Shown here in pieces: positions 3,799 through 42,914 of a DNA stretch of 64,000 bases. Under the pieces are notes generated by a model, which made no database searches, was not told the DNA's origin, and worked only from the letters and a program-made list of their open reading frames with translations. The stretch is from contig CP154954.1 in the NCBI GenBank assembly GCA_039621445.1, forward strand, positions 23,634,954-23,698,953, written 5' to 3'. Origin of the DNA: Euglena gracilis. Taxonomy: Eukaryota. Position numbers and translations under genes: made by a program. How positions within the stretch are numbered: the first letter of the stretch is position 1; every line of letters begins with the position of its first letter.

Positions 3799-3870
3799 GC
3801 GGGACCTGGGTCTCGAACCCACGACCTCCCGCGTGTGAGCCCAGCACCTTACCGAATAAGCTACTCGAGC
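3799..3870 (-). ncRNA. tRNA-derived Pol III module in right TRIM LTR
   Basis: Same sequence as 3109-3180. Confidence 0.65.
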
Positions 3871-4585
3871 GATACTCGGCTTGGTACTACGCGCCGGCTA
3901 CCAACCTCCGTAGGATCTCCCGTCTGCCGCACACACTTAAGCCCCGTGAAATCTTCTTCCGCCCTGTAGGCGTTTGCTTCCACAAAAAGACGTTGCGACC
4001 CCTTCGTCACGGCAAAATGGGGACCCCCCCTGGTGGCTGAGGGTCCTCGTCAGACGTGCCGAACCTCCATTGTGGGGTAGCTCTCCATGCGACCCTTGCG
4101 ACCCCTTGCTGACCCCGTGTGACCTTGAAATAATGGTCGGGAGGGGGCAACAGTTAGGGGGGGGGGTGCCCATCCTATGGACATGAGGGGTAAATTGAGC
4201 AACCTCCCCCCCCATATAAGACCCCCCCCCCATTATGTACCTCCCTCCGGGAGGCCGAAATTGGGGGGGAGGTACATAATGGGGGGGAGGTACACAATGG
4301 GGGGGGTACCCAGGTCCCATTCCCAGACCCGACCGAACAGCCCAAAAGGGGTCATTTTTGGCAACTTTTTGGATGTTCGCAATAAATGGTAAATTTTCAG
4401 CACATTTGCCAAATACAGACATGCGCCAAATTCCGTGGAACACTAATACTCGCGCTCCCTTTTTCTGAGGGGCTTTATTAAATTTATCTAAACCCCTCGG
4501 ACACGGCATAGCCGCGCAATAAAACCCCGCGTAATAATCCCCCGCAAAGTTGGTACCTTTGGTGATTCCTAATGCTATTTTTCTT

Positions 4586-4610
4586 TCTCTCTCAGTGTCC
4601 ATTTTTTTCG
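4586..4610 (+). other. Degenerate euglenid spliced-leader exon at the head of a repeat 5' end
   Basis: TCTCTCTCAGTGTCCATTTTTTTCG followed by ACATATCACATGGCCGAGAAGTGAAAGCCC, the same junction as the better copy at 40078-40102. Confidence 0.7.
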
Positions 4611-4697
4611 ACATATCACATGGCCGAGAAGTGAAAGCCCACGGAGGGGTTCAATTTACAAGTACTGGTCTAGTTGAAGTCCCTGGTGCAGTTCAAG

Positions 4698-7339
4698 TGA
4701 AAATACCGCTCTGCATTATTTACCGGTTGGATTAATACCGAAGTGATTTTTGAACGGAATTAATCCGAGCGATAACGGAGGCAGAGCGGATTTTGTCCGG
4801 CGGTATTAGGCGCAGGCTGTTCGCGAAGAAGAGCAACTGCTGATTAATCTGTTGTTACACACAAAATGTCGGATCACCTATGTGCCATCATTTGAACTGG
4901 TTCAAGCTGCACAGTTGGTCTCAGAGTTCCGTCCCGGACTTGTTTCAATTGGCCTGACTTCATTCTGTGCCTACGACCTTTTTCCTGAAGCTGCTGGAAT
5001 CCTGTGGTCCAAGCCTCTCCACTTACAGATGGTGACCACTTCTTTACGACCCTGGGATTCCTCGCCACCAACACGGCCGCATCTACCGCCACCTGTTGTC
5101 CGCCAGTCCACAAGTTACCAGAACCGCCTTCTTTCTGTATTTGGTTGTGGCCCTGTTCTGGTGCCAGTGGCTGTGCTGTGGTTGGCCCTGGCCCCCCCAT
5201 GGGGGGCGTTTGGCCGGACCAACCTAGCCGGCCGGCAGACCAACCTAGCCGGCTGCCAGACCAACCTAGCCAGCCAACATGCCGGCCATCCAGCCGTCCG
5301 TCCAGATGAAAGCCACTGTCGCTAGCCGCCCGGCCATCCAGACCAAACAATCCGCACGCCGCACGCCGTGATGGCTGGATAAGGACTGAATGTTTGCACC
5401 GTAAGCCAATTTCGTCCCGGCTGAATGTCGCCCGGGTGCACGTTCGGTCCGAAATAAGGCCTGTTCACTTTCACCCGTAGGAGCACCGGAAAAAAAGATT
5501 GCCGCTTGAAGCACCCCCCTTTCCAAAAGAAACTTCTGGCCATTGGTTCCCCTCCTTGAAAAAATATCGCCAACAAAACTGGCCTGAAACATGGCCACCC
5601 TTTGGTCGAAAAACTGGCCACCACAAACCCTCCAAAACTGACCCATTTGCAAGACTCAAAAACTGCACCCCCGATTTTTTAGCTTTCTTGAGCACAGAGT
5701 ACTGACAGAGCAAAAAAAGAACGCAAGAAAAAAAAAAACAAGTTTCAGAAGAAAACGAGCAGTTCAGGATAAAACGTTTCTGGTCAAAATCTGGCACCAT
5801 CTGGCCCAAAATGCCCCAAGGTCTGGCCCAAGATGGCACCAAACTGGGTGGGGGGGGAGAATGTTTTCAGAACAAGAACGCTGCAACAAAGCCTTTTCAA
5901 ATGCCCTTGGCAAAAAACAATTGAACAACCTTGTTGAACTGCAGAAAGCAAACGCGAACATTGCAACAAAGAGAGCACAAGACCGCAACAGACCCTCACA
6001 AAAACAGTTTTAAATCCTTCACTTCATTACTCATCGTCTCTTCTTGGTTCACCTTCTGCTTCTTCACACTTCAACCTGTGAGTCAAGGGTGACAGACGAA
6101 AGACAAAAAAAACATGCCACACAAGAGGGTGGGACTCAAAATTGTCACCCAGCGGACCAAATTTTGGAGAAAATGTCACATTTTTTAAAGTGGTCCAGAT
6201 ACACTAGAAAAGACCAATATAATAACTCTTCAAAAGACACTTTTGGATGGCGTACCTGCTTCAATGTTCAAAAAATCCTGCACCAATGCATTCCTCATCC
6301 TTCAAATAGCTTGTACCTGAAGTCAGAATAAAGATAAACAACGAATTCCAAGAGGGAGAAATACGTTTTTTCTGTACACAATTAGGAAATACCAGGCGTG
6401 GTCGCCTGCGCTAGACCTTTCGCGATTTTGAGACCAACCTAGCCGTCCGTCCGTCCAGCCAACATGCCCCCTGTCCAGCCGTCCGTCCAGATGAAAGGAA
6501 TTTTCTCTAGCCGTCCGTCCGTCCGTCCGTCCGTCCGTCCGTCCGTCCGCACAGCTCCATGGTCCACGACGGTCGTACACCGGTGGCCTGGGGATGTGCG
6601 CCTGGCCGGGCCTTTTACTGGACCACTACTCCTACATGGTCATCCACCACAGCTGCAGCAGTAAATGTCACTGGCCTGCATACTTTTTGCCTTGTGCATT
6701 GTGCTGTGTCCTTTTCCCAGTGCTGTAAAACTCTTACCGTAAAACATTCTGGTACATCTTTCAGCCTTCCCCACCCAATTTCCCCCAGATTTGGGACCCT
6801 TCAACTCTGAGAGGGATGTCGCCATCCCAAAAACTCGCTTCTGTGGCAGATGCCCCCCCTTGTGGGACAAGGCTCTCAGAACACTAACTGCCCCACCCCT
6901 GTCCCAGCTAAAGGAAAACGTAGTTTGGGCATCCCCCTATACCCCAAATTTTTTTTAAAAAAGCAACAAAACGAATTTTTTTAAACCTGCTCCCCCCACA
7001 GGGGCTGCATTCGGCTGCCTGGGGGGGGGGGGCGGGGTAATTGTGGGGGTCCTGAGGGGTGTCCCTTTATTTTTTAAGACCCCAAGGCCCCGCCCCCCAA
7101 GGTGAGGGGGTTTTCCTTTCCTCTCTGTTGCGGAAAAAAACATCACAAAGAACAAACACTGGATAAAAAAAGTGTTCGGCGCGGGGAGTTTCGTGTCGTG
7201 CAAAACGCCAGCTGCATGATCTTGATTACCATACCTTGCTTTTTGACGAGCGTAATTAATCCGCGCGGACACGCTCTGATGGCGTGATTAATCCGTTCGG
7301 TATTTATCCCTTCGGTATTCGTGCCATGCGGTATTTTCA
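4698..7339. mobile_element. Composite TIR-bounded element
   Basis: TGAAAATACCGC at 4698 and GCGGTATTTTCA ending 7339; related subterminal repeats; interrupts the SL-headed repeat. Confidence 0.55.
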
Positions 7340-7494
7340 TCCCTCCGGAGGGGTTCAATTTACAAGTAATGGTCTAGTTGAAGTCCCTGGTGCAGTTCAA
7401 GTACAAGTCAAGTGGAGTTCGGGAGGAAGCGGAGTGGGCCCATGGCCCAAAGCACACAGTCCCGGAAGGATAAATACCGGAACTGTTTGGCAAG

Positions 7495-7617
7495 TTGACC
7501 ACTGAGGCGAGTATGTGGAGATGGAGATGCACCACGAGGCTCTGAGCGAGGCTATCCCTGGCACAACCTTGGCTTCAACGCGCAGAACGTGTCTGTCAAA
7601 GATATTCCCCATGATTA
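7495..7617 (+). pseudogene. tef1: Elongation factor 1-alpha fragment, intronless, frameshifted
   Basis: Reads LTTE..VEMEMHHEALSEAIPG / GFNAQNVSVKDI, matching EF-1alpha LTTEVKSVEMHHEAL.EA.PGDNVGFNVKNVSVKDI. Confidence 0.85.
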
Positions 7618-8174
7618 TGCAGCTGGGGTCCCCACGGCCAGCCAGATACCAGCCAGACCTCCTCCTCCTCTTTTTTTCACCAGCCACCAGCCAGACCTCC
7701 TCCTCCTCTTTTCTCCGAGCCACCAGCCACGGCTAGCCGTGGCTGGCCGCGGCTGGTGCGCCTCCTCCTTTTTTTTTTTTAGTGCCTACCGGAGAGCGAA
7801 AATTAGCAGTAGGAAAAAGCACCATGGCGAAACCTCGCCGTTGTTTTTTACGCTCCACGGCTGCGCCCGCCAGGTTTATTCGCAACATCCATGCCTGCGG
7901 ATGTGTCAACGGCCGGCAATAGGAGCAGAGGTCAATGGAACCAGAAGTGAGTATAAACTAAACAAGACGAGCCATTTTTATGGTTGGGGAAACATTTCAG
8001 CAAAGTATTTCACGACAGCATATGAATATACACGGCACGAAAAAGCACCCCAAACAACACAAATTTTCCCCCAAAAACACACACACAAAACCGCTTTTGC
8101 GCACCCCCTCCTCCAAGAGAAACGGACCCAAACAACTCCCTCCTGCAAAAAGCCTGTGGCCCAAAACTGGCCAC

Positions 8175-8365
8175 TGGACGTCTCAGAATATTCTTTTGTT
8201 TTTATTGAAATCCTCGGATTCCCAATTTTTCTTGATATCCCAATTGTCCCCAAAGACGTAACACAATCAATGTTGAGACATAACCAGAGCCAGCAGTCTG
8301 CACAGGAGGAAAGGTTCGAATTAGGAATACAAAGTTCGGTTCAGGCGGTTAGTAAATAGTCCGCA
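8175..8365 (-). repeat. 3' LTR
   Basis: Direct repeat of 15035-15225. Confidence 0.97.
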
Positions 8366-8651
8366 CACGCCCCCCATGCCGGAGGACGCGGCGCCACAGG
8401 CACAGGACGAAACGGCATCACACCACAAACAAAATGGCTTTACTATGGTTCAAGCACGAATGAATGGTGTTCAACACGAATTGTCCACAAAAAAGGTTCA
8501 GAACGACAAATGTCAACACAAAGGAAGGTAAAAGAGGTTACTTCCGACGTTCACCGTGGTCCCTTCACTTCGTGGTTGGCTTGCCATTCAAAAGTAACAC
8601 AAACCTGGGCGAAACTCCTCGCATCAATGGCAGGTTTGTGACTGAAAGCCT

Positions 8652-14591: not shown

Positions 14592-15015
14592 TTCTGCAGA
14601 TCACTTTCAAAAAACTCAACCACTGGCTCTGAAAACTGGGAGAAACAGAAACACTGGCCAACCCAAAAAACAAACAAAAACTGAAGAAACCAGAACAGAA
14701 AACCAACCACTGGGTTCAGGACCAGGTCAGCAAGATGATGAAGAACTTGCCTCCACCAAGATCTTGTTCTGGACAGCAAGGTGAACAGCACCACTTACAA
14801 ACTTCCTCAACCAAATAACCAATACAACAACTGTTGACAAACTCTCCACTGTGAACTTGTTCACCACAGCCTCAATGTCAACTTCCTGTTGAAGGTGTTG
14901 TTCTGTACCAGCAACTCGGTTAACCTTGCCTTCAGGAACACCAACTTCTGGAACTTCAATAACCAGTGAAACAATGTTGAATCTCCTCGAAGACGTCTTG
15001 GACGATTGGAACAAC

Positions 15016-15030
15016 AAACCTCTGCGACCA
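15016..15030 (-). promoter_or_regulatory. Primer binding site
   Basis: TGGTCGCAGAGGTTT starting 4 nt inside the 5' LTR; TGG is complementary to tRNA CCA. Confidence 0.7.
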
Positions 15031-15034
15031 ACTT

Positions 15035-15225
15035 TGGACGTCTCAGAATATTCTTTTGTTTTTATTGAAATCCTCGGATTCCCAATTTTTCTTGATATCC
15101 CAATTGTCCCCAAAGACGTAACACAATCAATGTTGAGACATAACCAGAGCCAGCAGTATGCACAGGAGGAAAGGTTCGAATTAGGAATACAAAGTTCGGT
15201 TCAGGCGGTTAGTAAATAGTCCGCA
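15035..15225 (-). repeat. 5' LTR
   Basis: Direct repeat of 8175-8365, adjacent to the PBS. Confidence 0.97.
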
Positions 15226-22535: not shown

Positions 22536-24005
22536 GGAGCTGGGGTCCCCACGGCCAGCCAGATACCAGCCAGACCTCCTCCTCCTCTTTTTTTCACCAG
22601 CCACCAGCCAGACCTCCTCCTCCTCTTTTCTCCCAGCCACCAGCCACGGCCAGCCGCGGCTGGCCGTGGCTGGGGCGCCTCCTCCTTTTTTCCAGTACCT
22701 TCCGTAGAGCGCAAAAATTATAGTATGGCAAAGTCACCGGGGCGCAACCCCGTCGTTTTTTAGTACGCTCGGTGGCTGACGCCAGGTTTAGTCACAACAT
22801 CTACGCTGTCGAGCAGTAGGAACCGCGGTTCATGGAACCAGAATTGCTGCGCAAGAAGAAAATATCTTTCAGGGGAATAAACATTTCTCCAACATATTGC
22901 ACGGCAGCAGCATGTGACTGCGCCGGAAGGAACCAGGCGGTGGGGGGTGGGTCGGCCCCCCCACCCACCCACCACGGCATTTTCACCATTTTCTGGGTGG
23001 AGAGCAACGAATTTTTACGGCCGCACTGACTGACTCCGCCGGAAGCCGGAGGGGGGCAGAGAAAAAAACAACCACGCAGCACGGAAAAGCCCCCCAAAAC
23101 AACACAAATTTTGCAAAAAAAAACGCAAACAAAACGCTTTTGTGCCCCCCTTTCCAAGAGAACCGCACCCAAACAACTCCTTCCTCAGAGAAGTGGCCCA
23201 AAACTGCCCACGACCTTTGGCCAAAAACTGGCCACCACATCTGGCCCAAAACTGGCCACCAAAATCTGGCCATGACCTGTGGCCCAAAACTGGCCACCAC
23301 ATCTGGCCCAAAACTGGGCATCACATCTGGCCCAAAACTGGCCAGCACATCTGGCCCAAAACTGGCCATGACCTGTGGCCCAAAAATGACGAACACATCT
23401 GGCACAAAACTGGCCAGCACACCTGGCCCAAAAATGGCCACAAGAAGTGAATCAAACCATTGAAAAGTAAACCAGAATACAATGATATTACAAAAAAAAT
23501 GGACAGACAAAAACCTTCGACTTTTTAGGCACAGCAACAGGAATCAGAAAACACACAAGATAGACATTCCCAACATAATGTAGCAGTTTGTCCAGCTCCA
23601 GCAAACTCCTTCCAATAAGTTCATTTCACCTCAAGCCACCTGTGCAGCACTTAGTGTACTCAGCACCATATCATCATCTCCAACAGCGCCTTTGCCCAGG
23701 TCAAATGACTCTGTACTGCAGGTCTGACATTTTCTGTCCTGCAATGAAAATGTGAAGTTGCGCAGAAAACACCCTGAATCAGGACTTGCCCGGATCGCGG
23801 GGCTTTTTTTTCAGCTAGTTTCCCATCGCGGCCAGCCAGACCTCCTCCTCCTCTTTCAGATCCTCAACACTGAATCCAGCCAGACCTCCTCCTCCTCTAA
23901 ATCCACCCAGCCAGCCGTGGCTGGCCATGGCTGGCCAGACCTCCTCCTTTTTTTTGCCAGCCAGCCAGCCGCGGCTAGCCGCGGCTAGCCAGATACCCCA
24001 GCTCC
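22536..24005. mobile_element. Non-autonomous TIR element with 3-bp TSD (PIF/Harbinger-like)
   Basis: TIR GGAGCTGGGG / CCCCAGCTCC; TSD CAC; excision restores VLQVDMRNAF; the empty site is visible in the second CRE copy near 35385. Confidence 0.85.
23195..23442. repeat. 24-bp tandem repeat, about 10 units
   Basis: CTGGCCCAAAACTGGCCACCACAT and variants. Confidence 0.9.
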
Positions 24006-26482
24006 CACCTGCAACACCACGTGGTCGTTGTCCCCTTGGAGGTGGCTTGACTGGCCGTAGCGTTGCAGGCCCATGCCCACCATCTCGGCGGCGTTGCGCA
24101 CTCCCACCCTGCACTGCCGCGGTTGTAGGGCTGCCAACTCCATCGTCACCGCTTCAGAATGGACAAGGCACTTGCCCACCACTCGCCGGAGTGTGTCCCC
24201 GACGGCAATGGGCCGCACCCCCCCATCCTTCTTGCGGAGCGGGATGAGCGTGGAGGCGCATAGCACTTCTCGCACGCTCTCCGGGAATGATGTGGTCAGG
24301 GCCGTCGCAGCAAGCTTGCCGAGGGCTTGGACCAGGGGCCCCCCCGGCCCCAGCTTTCGGCAACACTCACTGAGGTGGATTGGACGCAGCCCAGATGGTC
24401 CGCCTGCGGACCCCGGGGGGAAGGAGACCACGGCTGCCCAGGCCCGCTTGGACCACTGCTCGTTGCTCTCCTCTTCGTCCATGCCCTCGTGCACCAGGCG
24501 GCAGGCAATCGAGGTGGGCAAATCCCCTGCCGGGACCAAGTGTGGCTGTGGTGGGGGATGGAGGTCCCTCAGTACGGCTTCCACACCTGGTTCCTGCGAG
24601 TTGACCAGCCCATCTGACACCAACAGCTTAGCGGCCTTGGACAGTGCGCCTTCCTCCACCAACCCCACCTGGGATGGTGACATTTCCCCTTCCTCCTCCC
24701 GCTTGGCCTGTGCCCTTGTGCGCGCCGGTTGGTCCAATGGGGTCTGCCGTGCTTGGGCGTTCGCCTCGGCCCACAAGGTTCCCAGTTGGCCTTGCTGAAA
24801 GAGACGCAGCCGTCGGTCCATGTCATGTGCTGCCTTCCGCTGCTGTTTGCTTCCACCCCGGCCTGATGAACGCAATACCAGCTTTGGGAAACACATGAGA
24901 CGGCAGGTTGGCACTGGGACTGCCACATCCCTCACCAGATGTGCCAGCTCTTGGGAGATGGCGGTGCGACACATTGCCGGGATGTGTCTCACCGTGGGCA
25001 CATGCACGACGAGCACCCCATCAAACGTCGGCGTCATTTGTGGGCATCGGCTTGTGGTTGGTGTTCCTGGCTGTGGCAGGGCTGCATCCCTCGGGGGGAT
25101 GAGAGACACAGGGCCCCGTGTTTCCTCTGCGGTGTCGAGGCCTTGCGGTGCCACCTGGCAGTTCCTGCATCTTTTGCTTTGGGGCACAAGTGAGCGGCAG
25201 GGGCCTGCGCAGTTTGGAGGACTGCTGGCGGCACCAATTGGCCGTGCGACACGTGGCGCGCGGCCAGGTGCGACACCAACGCTTTGCGGGACTTGGTGGT
25301 GAGGGCTTCTGGGCACGATGGAAAGGGACACATGAGGGTTGGTGGTCCCTCTGCTTCTGCTTCTTCCTCTTCGTCCTCAGCCGCCACGTCATCCCCTTGC
25401 TTTTCTTCGACGTGGCGGCCGAGTGCCACGGGAACCCGTGGCGTGTCCCTGCTTTCTGCCCCCTTCCCTCCCCTTGGGGATGTTCTTCTTGGTGGTGCCT
25501 TTGGCTTGGGTGTGGTTGTGGCTGTGCTGCTGCTCGCTCTGCTTCGCTTTTTTCACCAGCCGTCCGTCCGTCCGTCCTTCCGCCCCCCTTGCAAGTCTTC
25601 GACACCGACTTGGGCAAGAGGTCCAGCCACTGAAGGACTGGTTTGAGACGCCCTCCTCTATCCAGAGAGCGAGCCTGCAAGAAACTCGACAACAATTTTG
25701 GCAAGATCGCATGAACGCCCAGAGATACAAGGAATGGAAGCAAACTGGCAGCCACCGAGACTTGTGTCGCAAAAGCTTACAGACCGCCAACTCAGGGGCT
25801 TGGAAAAATTGACGCCCTTCTCAAGCTCTTGGAACCCAGATGGAACATGTTGATCATCGCCTGGCACTCCAGTGGTGGCTTGGGCTCCCACTGCTCAACC
25901 CCAATGAGGTGGGGGGGGAGAATTTGTGCCCAATGTATAGTATGGATGCATGGGGAGACCATGTAGTTACCTGCAAGGCCACTCAACGCCAACTCTACTC
26001 CAAGACTGGTTACTTGCCACAGCACGAGAGGATGGTATTACCTCCTTTAAAGAAGCACAACTGCTGGATGGCTCCCGACCTGGTGACGTACCTGGCGGGG
26101 TGGACCAGCCTTGGCTATTGATCTCACTATTGTGCACCCATTGCGACCTTCTGAACCACGCCCCTCACCAGACTCTGTCAAGAAAATGTTGCTACGTGAA
26201 GAACAAGCCAAACTCAATAAATATGCAGTGGCATGTGAGAAAGTCCGATGGGACTTCAAAGCATTGGTCCTTCACCTGTGGGGAGGCATGACCAGTAGGG
26301 TAGATTCGATTAATCGATTAATCGACTAATCGTCCGTGGCCGCCGATTAATCGAATCGTTCGGTGGGGGGAGATTAATCGGTCCACAAAAACAGGTCAAC
26401 GGAAACAAGACAACATCTCACCATGTCATACCCCAATGTTCAAGACAAAGGTTATTATGGAAAATGTTCCTATTAAGTAACA

Positions 26483-26554
26483 ATACATGTAGTTCAGTGG
26501 TACAACGCATACTTCACAGCTGTGAGGTCGTGGGTTCGATCCCCACCATGTATG
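26483..26554 (+). tRNA. tRNA-like gene, anticodon CAC, non-canonical
   Basis: Acceptor ATACATG/CATGTAT, AGTGGTA D-loop, T-arm GTGGG-TTCGATC-CCCAC, downstream TTTT. Confidence 0.7.
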
Positions 26555-26618
26555 AAGTTTTGTAACCCATTTTATCCAACTTTTGTTGGTGGTTTTGTCA
26601 ACAAAAGTTGAACTTTAA

Positions 26619-26690
26619 AAGACGAGGCAGGAATCGAACCCACGACCACACGGTCATAGAACACACGCTCTACCACTTGGCCACTCGTCT
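26619..26690 (-). tRNA. tRNA-like gene, anticodon position TAT, weak D and anticodon stems
   Basis: Acceptor AGACGAG/CTCGTCT, box A TGGCCAAGTGG, box B GGTTCGATTCC, TTTT at the 3' end. Confidence 0.65.
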
Positions 26691-26858
26691 TGCTGTACAA
26701 TTACAACCCATAAACAAGGTAAAGAGGTTCTTTTCCTGGTTTTCCAGTGGTTATCCTGGTTTTCGCCCCATCACGATGAATGTTTGGTATGAAGTGTACT
26801 ATTTTGGTTTTTGGGGTTGTTTCAGTGATTCCGAAGGCAGCCAGAGTTATTAGTCACA

Positions 26859-27720
26859 ATGTCGTCGTGGGTTTGGGAACACTTCAAGAAGGGCGGCGAT
26901 AAGAAGTCTGTCAGTTGCAAACACTGCCCAGACGGAAACACTTTTGCATACCATGGTGGGACAACATCCATGATTTTCCACCTGCGTTTGAAGCACAACA
27001 TCACACAGTCACCCACACCAAAAGGTTTAATTTCAAAAATTTAAGATAAAAACCCTCAATAATCTATTCAGGACAGTCAACACTTACCTCCCACCTTTTG
27101 AGGAAAGTTCTTGTTGAAAGGGCTCGTGAAGAATTGACCTCAGAGGAGTTCATTTGCGCTATATGGGCTCGAAAAGCTTTAGCACACGATCTCATCGAGG
27201 ACGCAGCCATACAATTCCTTTCCACGTTTTATAATCAAATAATTTTTGCGGAAATATCAACGTATCAACAAATCTGTGTACAAAAAGATCGGACGAGGAA
27301 TTGTCACCTTGGGAGTAGATGGATGGACGAACACGCGGCACAGGTTCAAATACTTTAGTAAATTTGACAAAAATCATTTTTATCACACTTGTTGGCAACC
27401 CACATTTTCGAAGCAAAAAAAATGCACCATGGACCATGAAGGATTTTTGGGAGGGGGCTCAGAAATGCATCTGGGGACCTCCCCATCGCTTGCAATTTAA
27501 TTCCAAGTGGTCTGAGCTCCAAGTGGTCTGGGCGACACCCTGCAAAAGAGCTTTTCTGCACAAAGTTTGCTTCATTCTGACCTCCGTTCCTGCCTCTCCG
27601 AGGAGAGTATTCGTGCCCTCATGTCAGTTCGCATGAACATTTTGCGACTGTACGATATTCCATGTATGCCTCGGCGGAAAAAAGCTAAAAAGCAATGAGC
27701 ACAATAGAAACAGAAGGAAT
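26859..27720 (+). pseudogene. hAT transposase remnant (BED finger, first catalytic Asp, C-terminal dimerisation motif)
   Basis: WVWEHF..CKHC..GGTTSMIFHLRLKH; putative GT-AG intron 27025-27071 splices in frame to GQSTLTSHL..IWARKALAHDLIED; TLGVDGWTN; ILTSVPAS..RVF; most of the core is missing. Confidence 0.85.
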
Positions 27721-28050
27721 TTGGCTGTCCAATCCAAGTGCTTTGCCTCCTGTGTCTGGGTCCAGTCCACACATTTTCTCACTGACTAGCCATTACATTC
27801 TTCGAAAAGTCAGTCGCTTTTTTTTTTGCGGAGAACTGTCAATCACCACCCCCCCCGGGGGGTCGGCACATCACATTTGCCCTCAAAACTCCCAGCACTG
27901 AAAAACCGACTTTGCTCGGCCTTTGAAAAACGGCCTTTGCCTATACTCCACCACTGAGCTATTCGCTTTTTGGTGGATTTCACATTTCCGACACATTTTC
28001 TTTTAAACACTAAAACAAACTCTTCTGAAAAAGGAAAAATGTCCAAAAAG

Positions 28051-28121
28051 GGGGCGACCGGGGATTGAACCCGGGACCGTAGAGTTGTTACCCTTATGCT
28101 CTACCACTAAGGTATTCGCCT
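28051..28121 (-). tRNA. tRNA-like repeat unit, anticodon AAC
   Basis: GGCGAATACCTTAGTGGTAGAGC..GTAACAA..CCGGGTTCAATCCCCGG. Confidence 0.6.
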
Positions 28122-28187
28122 TCTGACCACACATTCCTTTTTGACACAATACCAGACTCTTCTGAAAAAAAGGAAAAAGTCCAAAAG

Positions 28188-28258
28188 GGGGCGAACCGGG
28201 ATTGAACCCGGGACCATACGGTTATTAGCCCTATGCTCTACCACTGAGCTATTCGCCT
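28188..28258 (-). tRNA. tRNA-like repeat unit, anticodon AAT
   Basis: GGCGAATAGCTCAGTGGTAGAGC..CTAATAA..GGTTCAATCC..TTCGCC, followed by TTTT. Confidence 0.65.
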
Positions 28259-28337
28259 TCTGGGTGGCTAAAGTCTCACACTTTTTTTTTAAACACAATA
28301 ACACACTCTTCTGAAAAAAGGGAAAATGTCCAAAAGG

Positions 28338-28408
28338 GGGACGACCGGGGATTGAACCCGGGACTGTAGGGTTGTAAGCCCCATGCTCTACCACTGAGCT
28401 ATTCGCCA
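28338..28408 (-). tRNA. tRNA-like repeat unit, anticodon TAC
   Basis: GGCGAATAGCTCAGTGGTAGAGC-A-TGGGG-CTTACAA-CCCTA..CCGGGTTCAATCCCCGG. Confidence 0.65.
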
Positions 28409-32939: not shown

Positions 32940-33458
32940 GTTTTTGGTTTTTATTTTTCAAAAAAACTTTTTTTTGGCCAAAATCCCCGTTTTCCCGAAA
33001 TCGGTGAAAATGCTGTGGTGGGTGTGGGGGGTGGACCCCCCCCACCTTCTGGTTCTTCCGGCGCAGTCATATGGTGCTGCCGTGAAATATATGTTGAAGA
33101 AATGTTCGTCCACCCGAAAAATAAATAGTCTCGTCTTTCGCAGCACTTTTGGTTCCGTGGACCGCGGTTACTACTGCTCGCTGTTAACTCATCCGCCGGC
33201 GTGGATGTTGTGATTAAACCTGGCGAGCGCAGCCGGCGAGCGTAATCAAAACCGACGAGGCTCCGCCTTGCGGTCTTTGCCCTGTATAATTTTTGAAGGC
33301 ACTAAAAAGAAGGAGGAGGCGCCCCAGCCGCGGCCGGCCACAGCCAGCCGCGGCTGGCCGTGGCTGGTGACTGGGAGAAAAGAGGAGGAGGAGGTCTGGA
33401 TGGTGGCTGGTGAAAAAAAGAGGAGGAAGAGGTCTCTGGCCGTGGGGACCCCAGCTCC
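32940..33458. mobile_element. Partial inverted copy of the GGAGCTGGGG-TIR family
   Basis: Ends GGGGACCCCAGCTCC at 33458; reverse complement resembles 22536-23000. Confidence 0.65.
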
Positions 33459-35637
33459 AGTGGATCCATGTTGGGGCCAAGCTGCAGCTGCAACCATCGT
33501 AGCGTGTCTTGCGATGGGATTGCCAGCACCGAGGCCGGCACCCCCACAGCTTGGCTGCCATGCATCCCCAGGTTCAGCAAGGCCGCCATCCGTGCCGCCG
33601 GCTGCAGTACTTCTGGGTCCGAGATTCCGAGGCCTCCGTGGCGGATAGGCAGGGATACCTGATCCCACGTGCTCTCGGCGATACCCAGTCCGAGGAGATC
33701 TTGTACGGCTTCTTGCAGTCGTGCCCTGAGCGGGGAGTCCCGTGCGTTTTCTCTCTCCGTTGATCGGAGGAGGTGGACCACCGGCATCCGTCAAGGCAAT
33801 ACTGCAAGAGTGCATGCCGCACTTGCCCCTCTGGGTATCCCATGAGCCGTTCCAGGAGCAGGTTCGCGTTGCCCACTGTTTCTTCCCATACGGCTTGGCA
33901 TTGTGGTGCTCTTGGTGTGCCTTCTTCGGCTGCTCCATGCTCCATTGGAGCATCGATTGGGACAAGGTCGTGATACCCTTCGGTCCTCCAAAGGGAATCA
34001 CGGGCACTTGTCGCCCCAAGTGGTCTTCTGCCAAACCGTCAGGATATTGTGGCCCAGCCTGATCAATCTTTTGCATCCCAGGTCCCCATAACTTGCACTT
34101 GGCCAGGTGGAGGCCTGCCCCCTCGAGGACCGTGTTGAGGTCGTGGAGGCGGGCGAGCACCACTGCTGGTTTTCCCACAATGTGTCCATCGTCGAGGTAC
34201 CAAGGCTCCCACGCCAGGTCCCGAGCAAAGCACTGGTCGAGGGCGTAGTCCAAGCCCAGTGCAAAGCATAGTTGCAGTTAGTGCGACCGGAAAAAATGCT
34301 TCCGTGCGCCGCAACCACCGCGTTAAATTTTTTTGTAACCGGCAGCGTTGCGGCAAAAAATTTTCTGTGCGCCGCGAATGCCGCGGCACTGGTTTATGTG
34401 TGCGCCGCGACTGCCGCGGAAACTTTTGAAGTTTGTGCCGCGACCACCGCGGTAATTGTCTTTTTAAATTGTGTCCCACATATAACCCCCCCCCCCCACC
34501 TATAAGAAACCCCCCTCTATAAGAAACCCCCACCTATAAGAAACCCTTTGGGCATTTTCGGACCGACACCCACCTATAAGAAACCCCCACCTATAAGAAA
34601 CCCTTGGGGAGCTTTGAACCCAACCACCCCCTTTTTTCTTCGGCGCCGAAGGCGCCGAAGGAAATTTTTGACCGTTTTTGGCCACTTTTGGTCTTTTGTC
34701 GGCTCAAAACTTTTTCGGACATTGAAACCCACCTATAAGAAACCCCCACCTATAAGAAACCCCTCGGGCCATTTTTTGGAAACCCACCTATAAGAAACGG
34801 GTTTCTTATAGGTGGGGGGGGGTTTACTTCCTTCGGCCCCTTCCCCTGCCTGGCCTCTTTGATACATTCTCGACCATGGCCGAAAAGGGTATTTGGCGGC
34901 AGGGAGTGAACTTTTGTACAAGCGTTCCTGTTTGTTTTCACGTATCAGCTTTCACCATGTCAAGCGAGACCTCCACATAAACGTTCTTGATTTCCGGGCA
35001 GAAAAATTTTTTTGCGCCGCAACCACCGCGGAAAAATTTTCCCCTTGCGCCATGACCACCGCGGCAATGAATTTTGCTTGTGCCACGACAGCCGCGGCAA
35101 AAATCTTCTTGTGCGCCGCGACCACCGTGGAAATTTTTTTTTTGCGCCGCGGCATGAGCGCCGCGGCGCACTAACTACAAGTATGGTGCAAAGCCCAAGG
35201 GCCCGCATGCGTCGCCTTGGTGCACTCCAATCTGGCTCGTACACAGGAAGCGCCCTTGGCAGAACAGCGGACTTGGTCCACTGTAGCAAAAGCGCAACCA
35301 GTTGTACACTCTGGGCACCTTGGCTAAGCATCCCTGGAGCATTGCATCCCTGCCTGCTGAAGGAGTTGAAGGCATTGCGCCATCCACCTGCAGCACCACG
35401 TCGTCATCGTCCCCTTGGAGGTGGCTTGACTGGACGTAGCGTTGCAAGCCCATGCCCACCATTTCGGTGGCATTGCGCACCCCCGCACCATCGTGGCTGC
35501 AGGGCGTTCAACTCCACCTTCACCGCCTCAGAATGGAGGAGACACTTCCCCACTACTCGCCGGAGTGTGTCCCCGACGGCAATGGGCCGCACCCCTCCAT
35601 CCTTCTTGCGGAGGGGATGAGCGTGGAGGCGTATTTG
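33459..35637 (-). pseudogene. Second, partial copy of the 20770-25550 CRE-like family (RT region)
   Basis: RPIAVGDTLRRVVGK, GVHQGDACGP, WYLDDGHIVG; nucleotide-level similarity to 21515-24260. Confidence 0.9.
34267..35185. mobile_element. hAT-like element with nested TATAAGAAACCC MITE (about 34484-34824)
   Basis: TIR CATAGTTGCAGTTAGTGCG / CGCACTAACTACAAGTATG; 8-bp TSD GTGCAAAG; GCGCCGC..ACCGCGG subterminal repeats. Confidence 0.85.
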
Positions 35638-38600
35638 CGCGAACCGGCGGGTAGCACAGCTTCACCCAGACCGTGCCCCGGGCCCAGGGAGACGTCTCTT
35701 TTGGCCCTCGCCACAAGGAGAAACCCACAAGGAGAAACTCCTCATGACTCCTTGTGCGGCCACAGGTTGCCGGTAGATACTATGGGTGTAAAGTACAAAA
35801 GGTTGTATGGAGTGCCGTGCATGTCCCGCGGTCAGTGGTTAGAGGAAAATGGGAAAGTCCCATCTTCAATATATACGGCGGGGAGAGAGGGGTGTGTGTG
35901 TGCTTTGCTTTGCGCATCAAAGCCATTCCAAGCCCCTGCCATGCACTGGCCTTCACACCCCGCCTCTCCCAGCCGTTATGTTAGCTTAGTTGTTTGGAGG
36001 CGGATGCATGTGGAGACGAATCCTTGGCCTGCTTCACTCATGCCACCGTAGCAGTCCATCACCAGTGGGATAAATGTCCAACCTCGTCGCTTGCAAGGCT
36101 CCCCATACTTGGCGATTTTGTCTTCTTCCTGTCGATTGTGCCATTTGTCCACCTGAGCTGGAGGTGACGTGGAGGGTGCAAGTGGGAGCCTCACTGTGAC
36201 ATCAATGGCTGCGGGACCATTTGCGTCGAATCGAGTGATAAAAACATCACCCGGTCGTGCTCCATCCCCAGCTTTTTCTTCTCGACGTGCAGGAAAGCCA
36301 GCTCGTTGTGCCAGATTCAAGACAAAGCTTTGCACTGCCCCGTGCCGCCGAACGAGGTTGTTACGGTGGCAGCAGACGAGGTGGTGGCCGGCTGTGTCAA
36401 GTGGGCTCATGCATCGAGGACATCCAGGAGAGTTGCTTTCTTCTGTTTTTACCACAGGAGCGCCAAGCGTCCATTGGAGGAGGGCAACAAATCCTTTTGT
36501 GGGAACAAGGGTTTTTGTGCCAGCAGAGGGGACTGCACACGTCCGCTTCTCGCCGAAAAGGTACACCCAGCGTCTCCGGCGCGGGACCCCCCCCCCCCGG
36601 GGGGGTCCGGCCCGGACCCACCCACCCACCCCCCCCCTCCCCCCAGGGGGGGGGTCCGCTGACTTAAAAAGAAGCCTGGTGGAGCCGAAAATTTTTGAAA
36701 ATTGCCTTTAACGGGCTCGATTTTGGGGGGGTCCCTGCCCCCCCCTCCCCGGGGGGTCCCGCGCTACCCTGGGTGGGTGGGGGGGACCCCCCCTCCCCCG
36801 GGGGTCTTAAAAAGAAGCCTGGTCCCCACAACCGACACTTGGACATATTCAGGGAAACCCCAATGAGGGGTCCTTCACGCAGAATGTATCGGACTGATGT
36901 TTCCAGTTGTTCTGGGGTGCCCACGAGATGGGCATCGTCTAAGTACCATGCTTGCCATCCGACCAGCTCACCCACTTTTTCAACCAGATTTTGAACTGCA
37001 ATTGCGAACGCCGCAGGACCACATGGGTCACCATGTTGCACACCACTTTTGCTGCGGAAGGAGGTTGAACCGCAGCACAAAGTGGAATGCTCACTGTAGC
37101 AGCTCTCCATCCATGCTGTCATCTCAGGGCAGCGTTCTCGAACAGCGTCCAACATACCTTCACGGCGCAGGCAGTTGAAGGCATTTGCAAAGTCCAATTG
37201 CAGCACACCCCAATCTTGAGCACCTGTGTGATGGAGACAGCCAACAAGCTGCTGAAGCCCAATGGCGACAATGGAACAAGGATCAGAATGGCCAACACCG
37301 GACTGTCCAGGTTGATTGTTGCGAACTGCTGTTCTCACGACTTCCTGTCTCATGATCACTTTTCCCACCAGACGACGCAGGCACTCGCCCGCTGCTATGG
37401 GCCTGGTTCCCTCTTCTTCTGGAGTAGGTGGGCATTGGTTGCCAAAATCATCGGTGTTTTTGGCTGCCTTCACTTTCCGCAAGGCTGTCAGTCTGGCTGC
37501 TGCCATGATTGCGGCAGGTCCTTTTGGCAAACCATTGTCAATGGTGCGGTAACAGAAGATCGTGAGTTCGTCCAAAAGGTCATCTGCATGGCAACCTGCA
37601 TCATGACCCAGCAAACACCGAAGGTGGTCGGGCCTCAAGCCAGAGGGGCCTGGGGAGGATTCTGGGCCAAAGCTGAAGACTGCCTATAGCACTATGGTCC
37701 GGCGTTGTTGCATGTCTTCCTCAGAAGTGGCAGCTGGTAGCGAACGTCTCATGGTCGCCGGGCCAAGTCCAGGAGGCGGTTCATGTGGATGTAATTGCTG
37801 GAGGCGTTCGTGTACCAAGGGGTTGTCGGGGTCTTGAACGCCATCAGAAGTCAACAAGTTGCAAGCTTTGGATACTGCACCCCTACCGACCAGTCGTTCT
37901 AGTCTGGAGACAAATTCTTCTTTTGTTACTTCTTCCTCTTTCGAGGCAGCCAGTCTGGTACGTGGTCTCTTTCGTGTGTTAGTAGCTTCCACTGGAGCAG
38001 AGGTGTCCTTCCAACTCTCCAGCGTCGGGCGGCTTAGGTATTGTCGTGCACGAGCCTGCAGGATGCGACCAAGACGTTCCCAGTGACCGCGCCCACCACG
38101 GCCGAAGGGAGCCAGCACTGCCTTGGGGAAGCACCAAAGGGCGTGCAAGGCTTCCCAGGTGCTTTCCATTGCCTCAGAGCATCGAAATGAACATTGATGC
38201 CGCAACGCACCCCCTTTCAGGACGATCCCCTGACCTCCATCCAACTTGGGATGAAATCGCCCACGATCGCCATGGTTCCATCAACCTCATCCCTCGCGGG
38301 GCCATCCAAGCTGTGGCCGAGGTCTATTGCACACTCATGCGCCGCCTAAACGAACAAACTCCAAAGCTGTCGATACCTGGATTTTTTTTTGACATCCGCA
38401 TGTTTTTCACACCCGTAGGCACTAATCCGGCCGGCACATCAAAGTAGCTATCCCGGGGAACATAACGGGAACCCCCAATCAGTTTCCAGTTTTGGGGTCA
38501 AATCATGGTTTCCCGTGGGGCCATGTAAGTGGAACAGGAGCGGAGGCAGGATTGGATGGCACTTCGCTTTGAGCTAGGTCACCCCCAATAAGATCCGGAA

Positions 38601-39099
38601 GGAGCTGTTGTAGATTCCGGCAATCTTGCGAAGTGGTTTCTAAAAGTGGGGCCAGGGTGGGTGGGACCGAGGCAGTTGCCATCAGGAAGCCGACGGCCCT
38701 CGCCGGATCCTCACTGAAGTCGATTTCAGTCTGTGGTGGTGCTGCGGGGCCTGGATTGGGCTGAATGTCACCACAGGATAAATTTCCTTCTCCGCGCCCC
38801 AAGCGACAGTGGTGACCTGTGTAAGCGCTGGGGTTTTGGTGCGTCATGGTGGGCATGCGTTCGGGCCAGCTCATCGTTTTCCTTTGGCGTTCAAATTTCG
38901 GAGGTCTGCAGGAATTGGGGGCTTTGGCTCCTGGGGTTGTTCTGGTTTTATGGTGAATTTTCGCTGCCAGGGTAGGCTGTGTGCTGTCTTTTGCAGGAGT
39001 GTAAGGAACAAGCACTTTTCTTTGTTTGGCCGACGTTGGGTGGTTTTTTCCTGTCAGCGGAGAGGGAACCTGGGGGTTGTCAAGTTCATTTTGCTGAGG

Positions 39100-39785
39100 T
39101 GGGAAGGTTGCAGGCCAGCAGAATCTGGCAGAACTGGCTGGCTGGGGGGCCACGTTGCAGACCAAAAAGTGGATGTGCTGTCTGGCTGGGGGGCCACTGT
39201 TGCAGGCCAAAATGTGGAGGAACATGGTTTGCCAGTTTGTCGGGGGCTTTTCAGGCTGAGAGCAAAAATGGTGTCAGGGGGGGGCCCTTGCAGGCCCATG
39301 GCCTTTGTAGGCCACTGGGACAAAATGCTGCAACAGGACAAAAAGGTGTCACAGGGGCCTTTGCAGGCCCAGGGCCTTTGCATGCCACTGGAGCAAAATG
39401 GTGTTGGAGGGGGGCCTTTGCAGGCCCAGGGCCTTTGCAGGCCACTGGGGCAAAATGGTGCAACAGACCGAAATGGTATCACAGGGGGGCAAAATGGTTT
39501 TCAATGTCAAGTCAAAACTGCTGCAAAATGTATCACAGCTTTTGGTGTAACATGTGCTGTGAAATCTGGGGGTTTGCCACTTCAATTGATCAGAAGTTTG
39601 GGATGCAATGCAGAAAACAGAAGAGAAGACACTGGAGCTGAAAGTAGCACTTAATGGTTGGCAGATGGGGGGCCTTTGCAGGCCCAAAGGGGGGGGCCTT
39701 TGCAGGCCCACGATGAGGGGCCTTTGCAGGCCCATGATGAGGGGCCTTTGCAGGCCCAGATGGAGGGGCCTTTGCAGGCCCAGAA
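39100..39785. repeat. Clustered GGGCCTTTGCAGGCCC near-palindromic repeats
   Basis: Five 21-24-bp units at 39668-39783 and related copies at 39100-39450. Confidence 0.85.
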
Positions 39786-40077
39786 GGTACCAGCAGGGCT
39801 GAGAAGCCAAGGATAACAACAGCATGTGGAACTGCTGGAGCTGCTGATAAGGTCTGAGAAGCCCACTCCACTGTGGTCGTGTCCTGGACCTTCACTCCAC
39901 CTTGGACTCGTCTTGGACTTGCACTTTTTCTTGGACTTGCACCCTTGTAAATTGGACTTGACACCCGTACTTGTAACTTGTACTTGTAAACTTGAACTGC
40001 ACCAGGGACTTTCACTTCACCAGTACTTGTAACTTGAACCCCTCCAGGGGCTTTCACTTCTCGGCCATGTGATATGT

Positions 40078-40102
40078 CGAAAAAAAATAGACACTCATAA
40101 AG
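40078..40102 (-). other. Euglenid spliced-leader exon copy
   Basis: CTTTATGAGTGTCTATTTTTTTTCG versus the Euglena SL as I recall it, (A)CTTTCTGAGTGTCTATTTTTTTTCG: 24/25; followed by AC, not a GT donor. Confidence 0.88.
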
Positions 40103-40480
40103 CGAACCGACACTATTTTTTGCGGTTGATATGACTTGCCTTTGGCTGATGAAAAAAAAAACTGAATGTCAAGGAGTTCTCCCCTCTAGGGTACTACTTT
40201 GAAAAAAACAACAACCAGTCTCTTCACCCTCCTGGGGGTCAGCGAATGACACAATGACAGTGATTGGAGTGATTGGACGTTGCTCCTCTCGAGAAAGAAG
40301 CTGGGGGGCGACACCGCAGGACGGAGGCTGCAATGAATCCATCGCACCGCAGGCGGCACTGATAGTCGATGTACGCCTCCACCGTGTGCAAGAAATGAGT
40401 CTCTGCCAGAGCGGTCTTGGTCTTCAGGATCCACCGAAGGTGCCTGTGCAGAAAAACACATTCAAAAGTGGAGGTTTAAT

Positions 40481-40993
40481 TAACCCCCCCCCAAATATAA
40501 GAAACCCGTTTCTTATATTTGGGTGTCGGCCGATCGGCCCAAAGGGTTTCTTATATTTGGGGGTTTCTTATATTTGGGTGTCGAAGTCTGGCCCCAAGGG
40601 TTTCTTATAAATGGAACTTTTCTTCCTTTGGTTCCTTCATATAATCAATTACGTGCAGGATTGTCCTCATGTCTGACTGCCATTCAAACAGTGGGGAAGG
40701 GGGTCGTGACACGGACAGGTGTTTCCAAAAAGCAGTTGTTTCTGAACTCTTGCTTTGCAAAGAAGCAATAGACTGGATTGGCTTCACCTTGGGTTGATCG
40801 CGCCTTGAGATTTGCTGTGACCCATGGTGAAAATGAGGGGTTTCTTATATTTGGATTGGCGTCCAACAGCCCAGGGGTTTCTTATATTTGGGGGTTTCTT
40901 ATATTTGGGTGTCGGCTGAAAATCAGCCAAAGGGTTTCTTATATTTGGTGGTTTCTTATAGCGAGGGGTTTCTTATATTTGGGGGGGGGGTTT
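40481..40993. mobile_element. MITE with TATAAGAAACCC subterminal repeats
   Basis: AACCCCCCCCCAAATATAAGAAAC / GTTTCTTATATTTGGGGGGGGGGTT; related to 34484-34824. Confidence 0.75.
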
Positions 40994-42914
40994 AGGGGAC
41001 TGGGAAAACACTTTTTGGCCTTCCATTACATGCATGTCTCATTAAGAGCCCAGCACTATTCAAAACCTGGTCAAACAAGGGGGGGGGTAGTGGTACTGAG
41101 TTTATTGGAATCACCTGAAGGGGGAAGCAGCTGTTTTCGTCACATGGAAAGGGTTCGTGCATGTGTTGTTATAATTTTGAAAGCAAGCTGGATTTATGCA
41201 TTGCAGCTGCGACTAGTGTTGCTGCTGTCCTCCCTCCACTTTGGTAGACCCCCTCTGATGTTTCAAACAAGTTATACAGGTAATTTGACGGGACCTCGAA
41301 CACCATTGTGAATTTTTCTGCGGCCAGCAAGTGTTCCCTCCAACGGGGATGGTGTGAGACAGTGGGCAATTGTTTTTGCAACCGGCTGCAAATGGCTCCG
41401 TGGGGGCAGGTTTTGGGAGGCAACCTCATTTACTGTCTCTTTTTTTCGCATTCTTTTTGAAATCCCAAAACACAAAAGGCATCGCTGTCTCTTGCTGCCC
41501 GTTGGGCGGCCTGAAAACTTAAAAATTTTGATGTATCTGTGCCATGATTTCAAAAAATTGCCACAGTTTTTGTCACATCAATGCCATACTTCAAAAAAGA
41601 GCACTACCGTCTCGTCCCCCCCCCGGAATTTTTTTTTACCACCCTGAGTGCACTATGCACACACACATATGAATGTACTACAGCCGTACTGTAGTCTAGG
41701 CGGGGGGGCTGGGTGCGTTGGAGTGCCAAAAATTGAAGCCTGAATTGCGGCGAACGGTTGGGGGGGGGCTATGGCACTCACACACGATGACCTCCTTGCT
41801 GGGACCCAGGCACAGGGGGGGGGGGGTCCCGCGGGACCCCCCTGTCGAGTTGCGAACTCAACTGGACCGGTCGAGTATGCCCACTTGTTGGCAACCACAG
41901 CCGTAATTGAGTGGTGTGGAGCAGCGGAGGCTAGGCAGTCGAGTTAAACCCCCCTCCTCCCCCTGTCTGGTTCAGTTCGGACCTCGACAGGGGGGTCCCG
42001 CAGGACCCGCCTGGGCTCCACCGTTGTTTTTTGTTATTCCAGCCCTCGGCACCAGGCAACAAAAGTGCGGCAGTGTGCTCTATGTAAAATCCAACCCCCG
42101 ACCCATGTTTTCATGTGTTTTAAAAGAATGCTTCATTCCACGCAGCTCATGGATGGATTTTTCTGATACAAAGAAGTCAGTAAATCCACCATGGGCATTG
42201 TTGTGCGCACCAATTGGCATCGGTTGCCTTGTGTTGACTTATTTTCTCACAATCGACATCCATGTTCCTTCGTTTGCCAAACAGCAAATTGTGGTATATC
42301 TCTCAATCTCCAAGCATTTGTGATTGTTTTTGTTTCAAAAGACCCGTGTACCGGCCAGGCCGTATCCCAGGGCAAGGGCATCGGGACATTGAATCCAACA
42401 AATACCATGCCACCCCCCCTCCAATTTATCTCTGTCCCCCGAACCCTTTACAGCCCAATGGGAACAATACGGGGAGGGGGACAGCGATACCTTTTTTTTT
42501 GTTTTTTGGAAGTTTCAAACATCTTTTTTGGCAGATGTGCTTGAAATTTACCATTTTTTTTCAAAGTCAATTTTGAGCACTTTTGGAACGTTCTTCATGA
42601 ACAGCACCATGATGTGCTGTTCGTCACAGCAGCTGATGATGAACAGCACATCATGTTGCTGTTCATCAGCAACATGAACAGCTTTGAAAAAAAAAGGTCA
42701 ATTTCAAGCACTTTTGGGAACGTTCTTCATGAACAGCACCATGGCAGTGAACCATTTCTGTCCCGCCTCACGCATTACCCCGCATGAGGAAAAATGTGCA
42801 CCATTCACAGGTGTTCTTGGGGGGACCTGTGAATGTTAACCGTCCCACCGTTTGAAACTGTGTGCCCTTGGGGGCCCCTGTGGGCCCCAGGATATTAGAG
42901 TGGGGGGTACTGGC

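Follow-up and report, generated by a model that had tools for sequence, protein, structure and literature searches.

A putative R2-like retrotransposon of Euglena gracilis headed by a DNA copy of the host spliced leader

A stretch of 64,000 nucleotides from Euglena gracilis (assembly GCA_039621445.1, contig CP154954.1, positions 23,634,954 to 23,698,953 of the forward strand), referred to here as the window and numbered from its first letter, contains a repeat that begins with a DNA copy of the host spliced leader (SL). At one of two sites, the SL heads a complete transposed unit that encodes a reverse transcriptase (RT) and a restriction-like endonuclease (RLE), and the SL lies inside the target-site duplication of that unit. 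The repeat is probably an R2-like long interspersed nuclear element (LINE) of euglenids, full-length copies of which are headed by nucleotides 2-26 of the host SL and are reverse-transcribed from SL-bearing RNA into targets other than SL genes.

At site 1, the minus strand at 40103-40078 reads GCTTTATGAGTGTCTATTTTTTTTCG, which is identical at 24 of 26 positions to the E. gracilis SL, ACTTTCTGAGTGTCTATTTTTTTTCG (PMC6242988, in excerpt); a primer with an identical SL core is printed in an excerpt of PMC5654406. The two differences are a G at SL nucleotide 1, which may be target sequence, and a C to A change at nucleotide 6, and the last 20 SL bases are exact. The SL 20-mer TGAGTGTCTATTTTTTTTCG has a single occurrence in the window at up to three mismatches, with 0.01 expected. 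The sequence ACATATCACATGGCC... adjoins the SL exactly at the 3' end of the SL exon. At site 2, the plus strand at 4585-4610 reads TTCTCTCTCAGTGTCCATTTTTTTCG, a decayed SL that by hand alignment has about four substitutions and one missing T (~21/26). It stands directly before the same 30-mer as at site 1, ACATATCACATGGCCGAGAAGTGAAAGCCC, which has exactly two exact occurrences in the window, at 4611-4640 (+) and 40048-40077 (-), and which was recovered by chance in 0 of 100 shuffles. When the 27 T(5-10)CG sites of the window were scored against the SL, the top two (17.5 and 11.5) were those that precede ACATATCAC, and the third scored 7.0. The SL is of the euglenid type at both sites, not the trypanosomatid type, and the initial annotation, which reported an SL joined twice to the same repeat 5' end, is confirmed on this point by the shared 30-mer.

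The SL stops at its normal exon end at both sites and is followed by ACAT (ACATATC), with no GT donor. The sequences upstream of the SL are unrelated to each other, and likeness between the sites is limited to 40095-39990 and 4594-4698 (91.5% of 106 nt). The differing flanks and the missing donor had led to the claim that these are not SL-RNA genes, and both observations hold in the two sequences. Neither site has the make-up of an SL-RNA gene (SL exon, GT donor, and intron with an Sm site). At gathering scores, Rfam matched no SL-RNA or 5S rRNA family in the window and found four tRNAs only, bearing in mind that a euglenid SL-RNA family may not be represented in Rfam. Across the site-1 unit, no ribozyme or SL-RNA family was found by Rfam at E<=1 beyond two matches at chance level (E 0.24 and 0.72). 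No second SL-like stretch of the kind left by serial relics was found among the 27 candidate sites, so that each site has a single SL (n=2).

The ends of the unit at site 1 were set with contigs from sequencing runs. Sixteen DNA runs of one organism contain 36-45% of the sampled words of the unit, and contigs of two of these DNA runs (X1 and X2) and of two small runs that are only guessed to be RNA (X17 and X18) were aligned to 35000-41000 at a likeness of at least 85%. A joint from 40102 to 35645, a step back of 4458, is found in 13 contigs of X1 (summed depth 1601) and 5 contigs of X2 (summed depth 610), and in none from X17 or X18. Some bins of the unit have no cover in X17 and X18. The two sides of the joint have zero letters in common, and in the minus sense it reads ...CTACCCGCCG followed by CTTTATGAGTGTC... 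Contigs of the unique flank (X1 record 8 and X2 record 31, which cover 40073-40492 with at most one difference and at most one gap, at depths of 96 and 132) both end at 40073. This agrees with a repeat that starts at 40102, in which case a 31-mer graph has to branch exactly at 40073. One X18 contig has another, unrelated flank of 76 nt, which likewise ends at 40102 and which has no counterpart within the window.

Directly outside both of these independently set ends stands GTTCG, at 40107-40103 and at 35644-35640, a coincidence with a chance of about 1/1000 at fixed positions. GTTCG belongs to the target and not to the element, because the joint contigs lack it. The joint contigs together with GTTCG at both ends therefore place the SL inside the target-site duplication, as part of the transposed unit. 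The inferred empty site, ...TAGTGTCG GTTCG CGCAAATACG..., has no SL inside. An SL inside the duplication and an empty site free of SL therefore exclude both insertion into an SL gene and a reading of the 25-mer (SL nucleotides 2-26) as a 3' tail. The two ends of the unit show no similarity to each other, LTRs (long terminal repeats) are absent, and the unit ends in ...GCTGTGCTACCCGCCG without a poly-A like that of CRE elements. In this one copy, the duplication is of the kind left by RLE-type LINEs, for which target-primed reverse transcription would be the mechanism. In short, the unit combines a DNA-encoded SL at its 5' end with the marks of retroposition, and SL nucleotides 2-26 lie within the duplication.

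Four contexts precede the SL: the flank at site 1, the flank at site 2, the 3' end of the element itself (in the 13 X1 and 5 X2 contigs), and the X18 flank. Two outcomes had been named that would have spoken against mobility of an SL-headed element, namely SL-gene upstream sequence in front of most copies, and an SL-headed piece that is never linked to the RT. Neither was encountered, as the four contexts differ and as site 1 is a single unit with RT and RLE within a 5-bp duplication. The differing contexts and the position of the duplication outside the SL support the proposal that the SL-bearing element retrotransposes to dispersed sites that are not SL genes.

The coding content of the site-1 element was compared with its relatives, the nearest of which are proteins P0001 (1736 aa) and P0002 (1849 aa), with 53-55% identity to the RT piece. 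The RT piece is 53% identical to P0001 over 454 residues, and the piece with the CCHC zinc knuckle and RLE is 50% identical to P0001 residues 1499-1678. Both relatives have three 2A-like motifs and an NPPF methyltransferase-like region, followed by RT, CCHC and RLE, and the N-terminal part is missing from shorter relatives, which are about 1000 aa long. A profile built from 17 members of the family matches the solved R2 proteins (9nl3_A and 9dou_A) from the RT through the endonuclease with an E of 1e-32, and matches L1 ORF2p at about 6e-8 over the RT alone. The alignment to R2 chain 9nl3_A spans the C..C..H..C, RH, PD and DVTV motifs. Single queries (P0004 and the RLE piece) gave no match to solved structures, and R2 was reached by the family profile only. 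None of the 17 frames scanned contained an apurinic/apyrimidinic endonuclease (APE) family, and precomputed Pfam assignments for the relatives P0001-P0010 include RVT_1 without Exo_endo_phos. The features of an RLE-type LINE are all present (a LINE-type RT, a C-terminal CCHC and PD-(D/E)xK RLE, and no LTR or APE), and on these sequence comparisons the site-1 element is classified as an RLE-type, R2-like non-LTR retrotransposon. No protein named CRE, SLACS or CZAR was among the 102 + 44 protein matches, and a protein atlas gave unnamed RVT_1 clusters only. As to other features of the family, 2A-like motifs (GD[VI]E/Q.NPGP) occur in this RLE-type LINE family, with one in the window copy and three per full-length relative. 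The NPPF region upstream of the RT in P0001 and P0002 is Dam-like, with a precomputed assignment to Pfam PF05869 for P0002.

Several points weigh against an SL-headed, RT-bearing LINE as the source of these sequences. The case has a single complete unit with a duplication (n=1), which is itself rearranged and dead. The shorter side of the contigs that bear the joint never exceeds 31 letters, and these contigs were accepted at a likeness of at least 85%, such that they describe the family and not this locus. No RT of the SL-headed family was found downstream of site 2 on the plus strand. Therefore, the claim that RT and RLE lie downstream of the SL on the same strand stands for site 1 and fails for site 2. 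The 3' end has no poly(A), unlike a mature mRNA template, although R2-type elements need none. The junction dinucleotide in the SL-bearing copies is CG and not AG, and AG-acceptor master copies were not observed. Summed contig depth, which is not copy number, is far higher in the first 78 nt and the last ~200 nt than in the interior of the unit, and much of the SL-leader signal may come from short derivatives and not from the RT-bearing element. The depth profile tentatively suggests that short derivatives with both ends outnumber the autonomous element.

The last of these points is also the basis for an alternative in which the SL and the first 50-90 nt are a separate, abundant and short retroposed module, and the LINE proper starts further downstream. 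Candidates for such a module are a short element that is non-autonomous and the 5' end of a host RNA that underwent trans-splicing; it would have been attached to the LINE by template switching or be common to autonomous and non-autonomous families. The bin at 40025-40225 has roughly five times the summed depth of the following one, nearly all of it from 78 element bases (again, depth is not copy number). The module is present at site 2 without an RT body, and X18 contigs quit the site-1 copy at 39990 and 40028 to go on like 7400-7472. Against this, the duplication and the tandem joints enclose module, RT, RLE and 3' untranslated region (UTR) as one unit; internally deleted derivatives with both parental ends would produce a depth profile of this kind as well, and they fit an SL-headed LINE. 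A separate module is thus considered improbable.

Site-specific insertion into SL-RNA genes at the exon/intron border, in the manner of CRE, SLACS and CZAR, would make the SL a target sequence. Site specificity is typical of RLE-type LINEs, and elements of the trypanosomatid CRE clade occupy a fixed position in the SL-RNA gene (PMC12278014, in excerpt); moreover, the SL at both sites ends exactly at the exon end. The 5-bp duplication is outside the SL, and the inferred empty site is free of it. Four different sequences precede the SL, and no fixed insertion position in SL-RNA genes is seen. The 3' end of the unit is followed by the duplication and then by a truncated relative, with no SL intron, and the tandem joints set the 3' end against SL nucleotide 2 with no promoter or spacer between them. 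With no 5S rRNA or SL-RNA family matched by Rfam in the window either, this explanation is very improbable.

Less probable still is that the 25-mer is the 3' tail of the element, left in front of ACATATC by a severely 5'-truncated tandem copy. The DNA joints do set the 25-mer directly after ...CCGCCG, and non-LTR elements are often 5'-truncated and able to form arrays. In the window copy, no 25-mer follows the terminal ...CCGCCG, and on the 5' side the 25-mer falls within the duplication. Unrelated DNA precedes it at site 2 and in one X18 contig, and it matches the host SL at 24 of 25 positions. A chance likeness of a T-rich stretch to the SL, for which the degenerate site 2 (~21/26) on its own might speak, is hardly credible given 20 consecutive SL bases at site 1 and given that the best two of the 27 SL-like sites are exactly those before the common 30-mer.

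The SL-headed LINE can be accounted for by a series of steps. The inserted DNA begins with SL nucleotides 2-26; therefore, the RNA that was reverse-transcribed already carried the SL, and reverse transcription reached the penultimate or last base beside the cap. The SL would first have been gained by ordinary SL trans-splicing of a longer transcript, with an acceptor just upstream of ACATATCAC. The resulting RNA, with the SL at its 5' end, would be the template for target-primed reverse transcription, which would run to the capped end or to within one base of it, presumably with a stop beside the cap. The cDNA would then be sealed into a non-SL target, with formation of a short target-site duplication. 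Direct head-to-tail junctions, with the 3' end joined to SL nucleotide 2, are present in contigs of the DNA runs, and such joints without a spacer could arise by template jumps, by repeated insertion at an existing 5' end, by duplication or from circular DNA. The RT of R2 reportedly makes end-to-end template jumps in vitro.

Whether the SL is added afresh by splicing from master loci or is inherited as DNA is a matter of roughly even odds. In a specific form of the second possibility, which is tentative and rather unlikely, the SL is a heritable, DNA-encoded 5' module, copies are transcribed from the first bases of the SL, and SL and leader serve as an internal initiator like Pr77. Because the junction is CG, canonical trans-splicing of SL-bearing copies cannot restore it. 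Site 2 has a C at both SL nucleotide 4 and nucleotide 15, as do two X18 contigs whose ends lie 15 letters past 40087, at SL nucleotide 2; these contigs could be alleles of the site-2 locus. The 30-mer that holds the A variant of nucleotide 6 at site 1 recurs elsewhere in the genome, as judged from the contig break at 40073. Between the window copies, divergence is greater in the SL (5/25) than in the leader (7/88). The CG junction, the single SLs, the apparently shared SL variants and the divergence of the SL count against simple re-splicing of daughter copies, as hints from small numbers.

If the SL is heritable, each daughter copy would start out with the mRNA leader that is universal in the host, and would have no need of a host promoter or of a splice acceptor. 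The family would then be a plausible evolutionary link from the kinetoplastid CRE/SLACS elements that reside in SL genes to free-living LINEs.

Comparable systems differ from the site-1 element in the role or the location of the SL. In R2, a ribozyme cuts the 5' end of the element out of a co-transcript. The likeness to R2 (9nl3, 9dou, 8gh6) lies in the profile match from RT through CCHC and the PD...D-x-T-V endonuclease, in the lack of a 3' poly(A), and in a 5' end set by processing of a longer transcript, which would be by trans-splicing in the site-1 element and is by ribozyme in R2. R2 targets 28S rDNA, whereas the site-1 element has a target that is not repeated and the host SL as its 5' end, and no ribozyme family was detected by Rfam across the unit. 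L1Tc has a 2A peptide near the start of its open reading frame (ORF). L1Tc is an APE-type LINE, and its Pr77 is an internal promoter that gives unspliced transcripts and is not an SL copy. The L1Tc/ingi elements of trypanosomatids are alike in that a conserved 5'-terminal module is common to autonomous and non-autonomous elements (PMC1874656 and PMC8190864, both in excerpt).

The CRE clade (CRE1, CRE2, SLACS and CZAR) is described in the available part of PMC12278014 as having a fixed insertion position in SL-RNA genes and a poly-A 3' end. The site-1 element resembles it in its euglenozoan host, in a single-ORF LINE structure with RT and C-terminal zinc knuckle and RLE, and in a close association with the SL (PMC12278014, same excerpt). 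However, CRE has the SL as its target, whereas the site-1 element has the SL inside the duplication and a target that is not an SL gene, and it ends in ...CCGCCG where CRE has poly-A. As a precedent for an SL fixed in DNA, the relic SLs of dinoflagellates come closest; there, a DNA-encoded 5' SL of retrogenes was taken as proof of reverse-transcribed, trans-spliced RNA (PMC3942190 and PMC12014239, in excerpt). Those relics belong to host genes mobilized in trans, often with serial SLs; here, the SL belongs to the retrotransposon itself, as a single SL, in a euglenid. In Hydra, about 30% of Iso-Seq reads of transposable elements (TEs) have a 5' SL, such that TE RNAs use host trans-splicing (PMC12220107, in excerpt). 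This is a result at the RNA level, and SLs in genomic copies inside target-site duplications are not reported in the part of PMC12220107 that was available. Euglena LTR and DIRS elements that bear DAM are described in a preprint (10.64898/2026.05.21.726589), the available part of which is silent on the SL. A full-text literature search, the coverage of which leaves out most subscription journals, gave no description of euglenid LINE copies headed by an SL.

Searches for further copies used junction patterns, which gave 0 matches in each of the metagenome, viral and genome contig collections. Neither the euglenid SL 19-mer nor the dinoflagellate SL 21-mer, at up to three substitutions, was found at any of 80 loci from a protein-guided scan of metagenome contigs (80 of 411 confirmed relatives); these loci are only 24-33% identical and are uninformative on close relatives.

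An SL inside a target-site duplication is a natural tag that proves which RNA species a LINE uses as template. The Euglena genome is about 2 Gb in size and largely repetitive, and the tag also marks full-length copies in it unambiguously. Within the Euglenozoa, the relation of SL and LINE is reversed: the kinetoplastid element is in the SL gene, and here the SL is in the element. This raises the question of how a promoter-less LINE sets its 5' end in a host where most mRNAs are trans-spliced, for which splicing at a master locus and an SL-based initiator are candidates. If the RT copies SL-bearing RNAs to their ends, SL-tagged retrogenes would be possible in euglenids, as has been proposed for dinoflagellates.

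The features of both sites are collected in Table 1.

Table 1. Features of the SL-headed unit at site 1, of the neighbouring copy and of site 2, as positions in the window
Feature	Position	Strand	Remarks
Whole transposed unit	35645..40102	-	4458 nt; SL nt 2-26, leader, 5' UTR, RT/RLE ORF, 3' UTR; defective; ends from contig joint
Target-site duplication, upstream copy GTTCG	40103..40107	-	may extend to 8-mer CGGTTCGC (40109-40102)
DNA copy of euglenid SL	40078..40103	-	24/26; ends at normal exon end
Leader common to site 2	39990..40077	-	88 nt, 7 mismatches; 42-nt unit x1.9 at 39980-40060
Long 5' UTR	38875..39989	-	tandem repeats: 24-nt unit x5 (39669-39787), 44-nt unit x1.9 (39134-39218); bounds inferred from first Met of 2A-bearing frame
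2A-like peptide motif GDIQPNPGP	38746..38772	-	near ORF start (Met at 38874)
Inverted segment	38166..38563		inverted relative to relatives; contains ~50-nt extremely abundant repeat
Reverse transcriptase	36664..37683	-	SPGPSGL 37636-37656, RPIAAGE 37384-37404, YLDD 36934-36945; Pfam RVT_1 7.1e-11
G+C-rich, very abundant short repeat	36534..36808	-	replaces ~260 ORF residues (P0001 1236-1499) between RT and CCHC
CCHC zinc knuckle and RLE	35997..36533	-	CPRC...H...C 36369-36422, RPGD 36240-36257, IDVTV 36192-36206
3' UTR	35645..35975	-	ends ...CTACCCGCCG; no poly(A) run
Target-site duplication, downstream copy GTTCG	35640..35644	-	may extend to CGGTTCGC (35646-35639)
5'-truncated copy 'B' of related RT/RLE family	33249..35634	-	homology to copy 'C' (25376-20565) begins at 35634
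Site 2: decayed SL and leader	4585..4698	+	SL 4585-4610, leader 4611-4698; 5' fragment only
2.6-kb insertion	4699..7345	+	11-nt terminal inverted repeats GAAAATACCGC (4699-4709, 7328-7338); interrupts site-2 leader
Continuation of site-2 copy	7346..7620	+	sub-family with different body; matches loose ends of X18 contigs

The site-1 copy is dead. Directly before the RT, an in-frame stop separates the frame at 37684-38280 from that at 36664-37683. Residues 744-794 of P0001 match the plus strand at 38211-38360, and residues 792-1236 match the minus strand; contigs join 38166 and 38563 on opposite strands, with loose ends at 38385-38458. The abundant sequence of about 50 nt within the inverted segment (~38390-38438) is found once in the 64-kb window and has a summed depth of more than 4 million in both DNA runs, compared to about 100 in the unique flank. 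The repeat at 36534-36808 has runs of G and C around AAAATCGAGCCCGTTAAAGG... and a depth of about 1 million. In many related contigs, 59-69 nt at 36731-36801 are absent; therefore, this repeat behaves like a small mobile insert.

At site 2, the 2.6-kb insertion is flanked by a direct duplication of 57 nt of the leader (4642-4698 and 7346-7402, 98%). The insertion has sub-terminal repeats rich in TACCG, and its target duplication is unusually long at 57 nt (possibly 64 nt). Beyond the insertion, the site-2 copy has about 220 nt unlike site 1, then another repeat, and then a Ty3/gypsy element. At 39990 and 40028, X18 contigs diverge from the site-1 copy and run on as 7400-7472; the site-2 type therefore forms a separate sub-family.

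The SL-headed unit at site 1 lies about 5 nt upstream of the truncated 5' end of copy 'B' (35634-35644). This position could be due to chance, to a target preference for the 5' ends of elements or to template switching, and it may reflect the same tendency as the head-to-tail joints. An assignment of 35650-35700 to the RT of copy 'B' was rejected, as homology to copy 'C' starts only at 35634. No SL was seen in 25200-25900, at the 5' end of copy 'C' (25376-20565), which may itself be 5'-truncated. A further repeat family, at 22536-24005 (+), 33456-32998 (-) and 7621-8174 (+), splits the RT of copy 'C', in antisense orientation, and cuts copy 'B' short; its three copies begin at one internal position, equivalent to 7621.

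The window also contains a Ty3/gypsy LTR retrotransposon at 8175-15225 (-), with LTRs of 191 bp (8175-8365 and 15035-15225) that are 99.5% identical. Its pol of 1492 aa includes RT, RNase H, integrase and a chromodomain, with a weak Dam-like match near the N-terminus, and the protease is in a separate frame. A direct repeat of 336 bp (2912-3247 and 3602-3937) has 99.7% identity between copies that are 690 bp apart. The four tRNA genes form a cluster at 26483-28402, on both strands, in locally repeated DNA (27940-28407).

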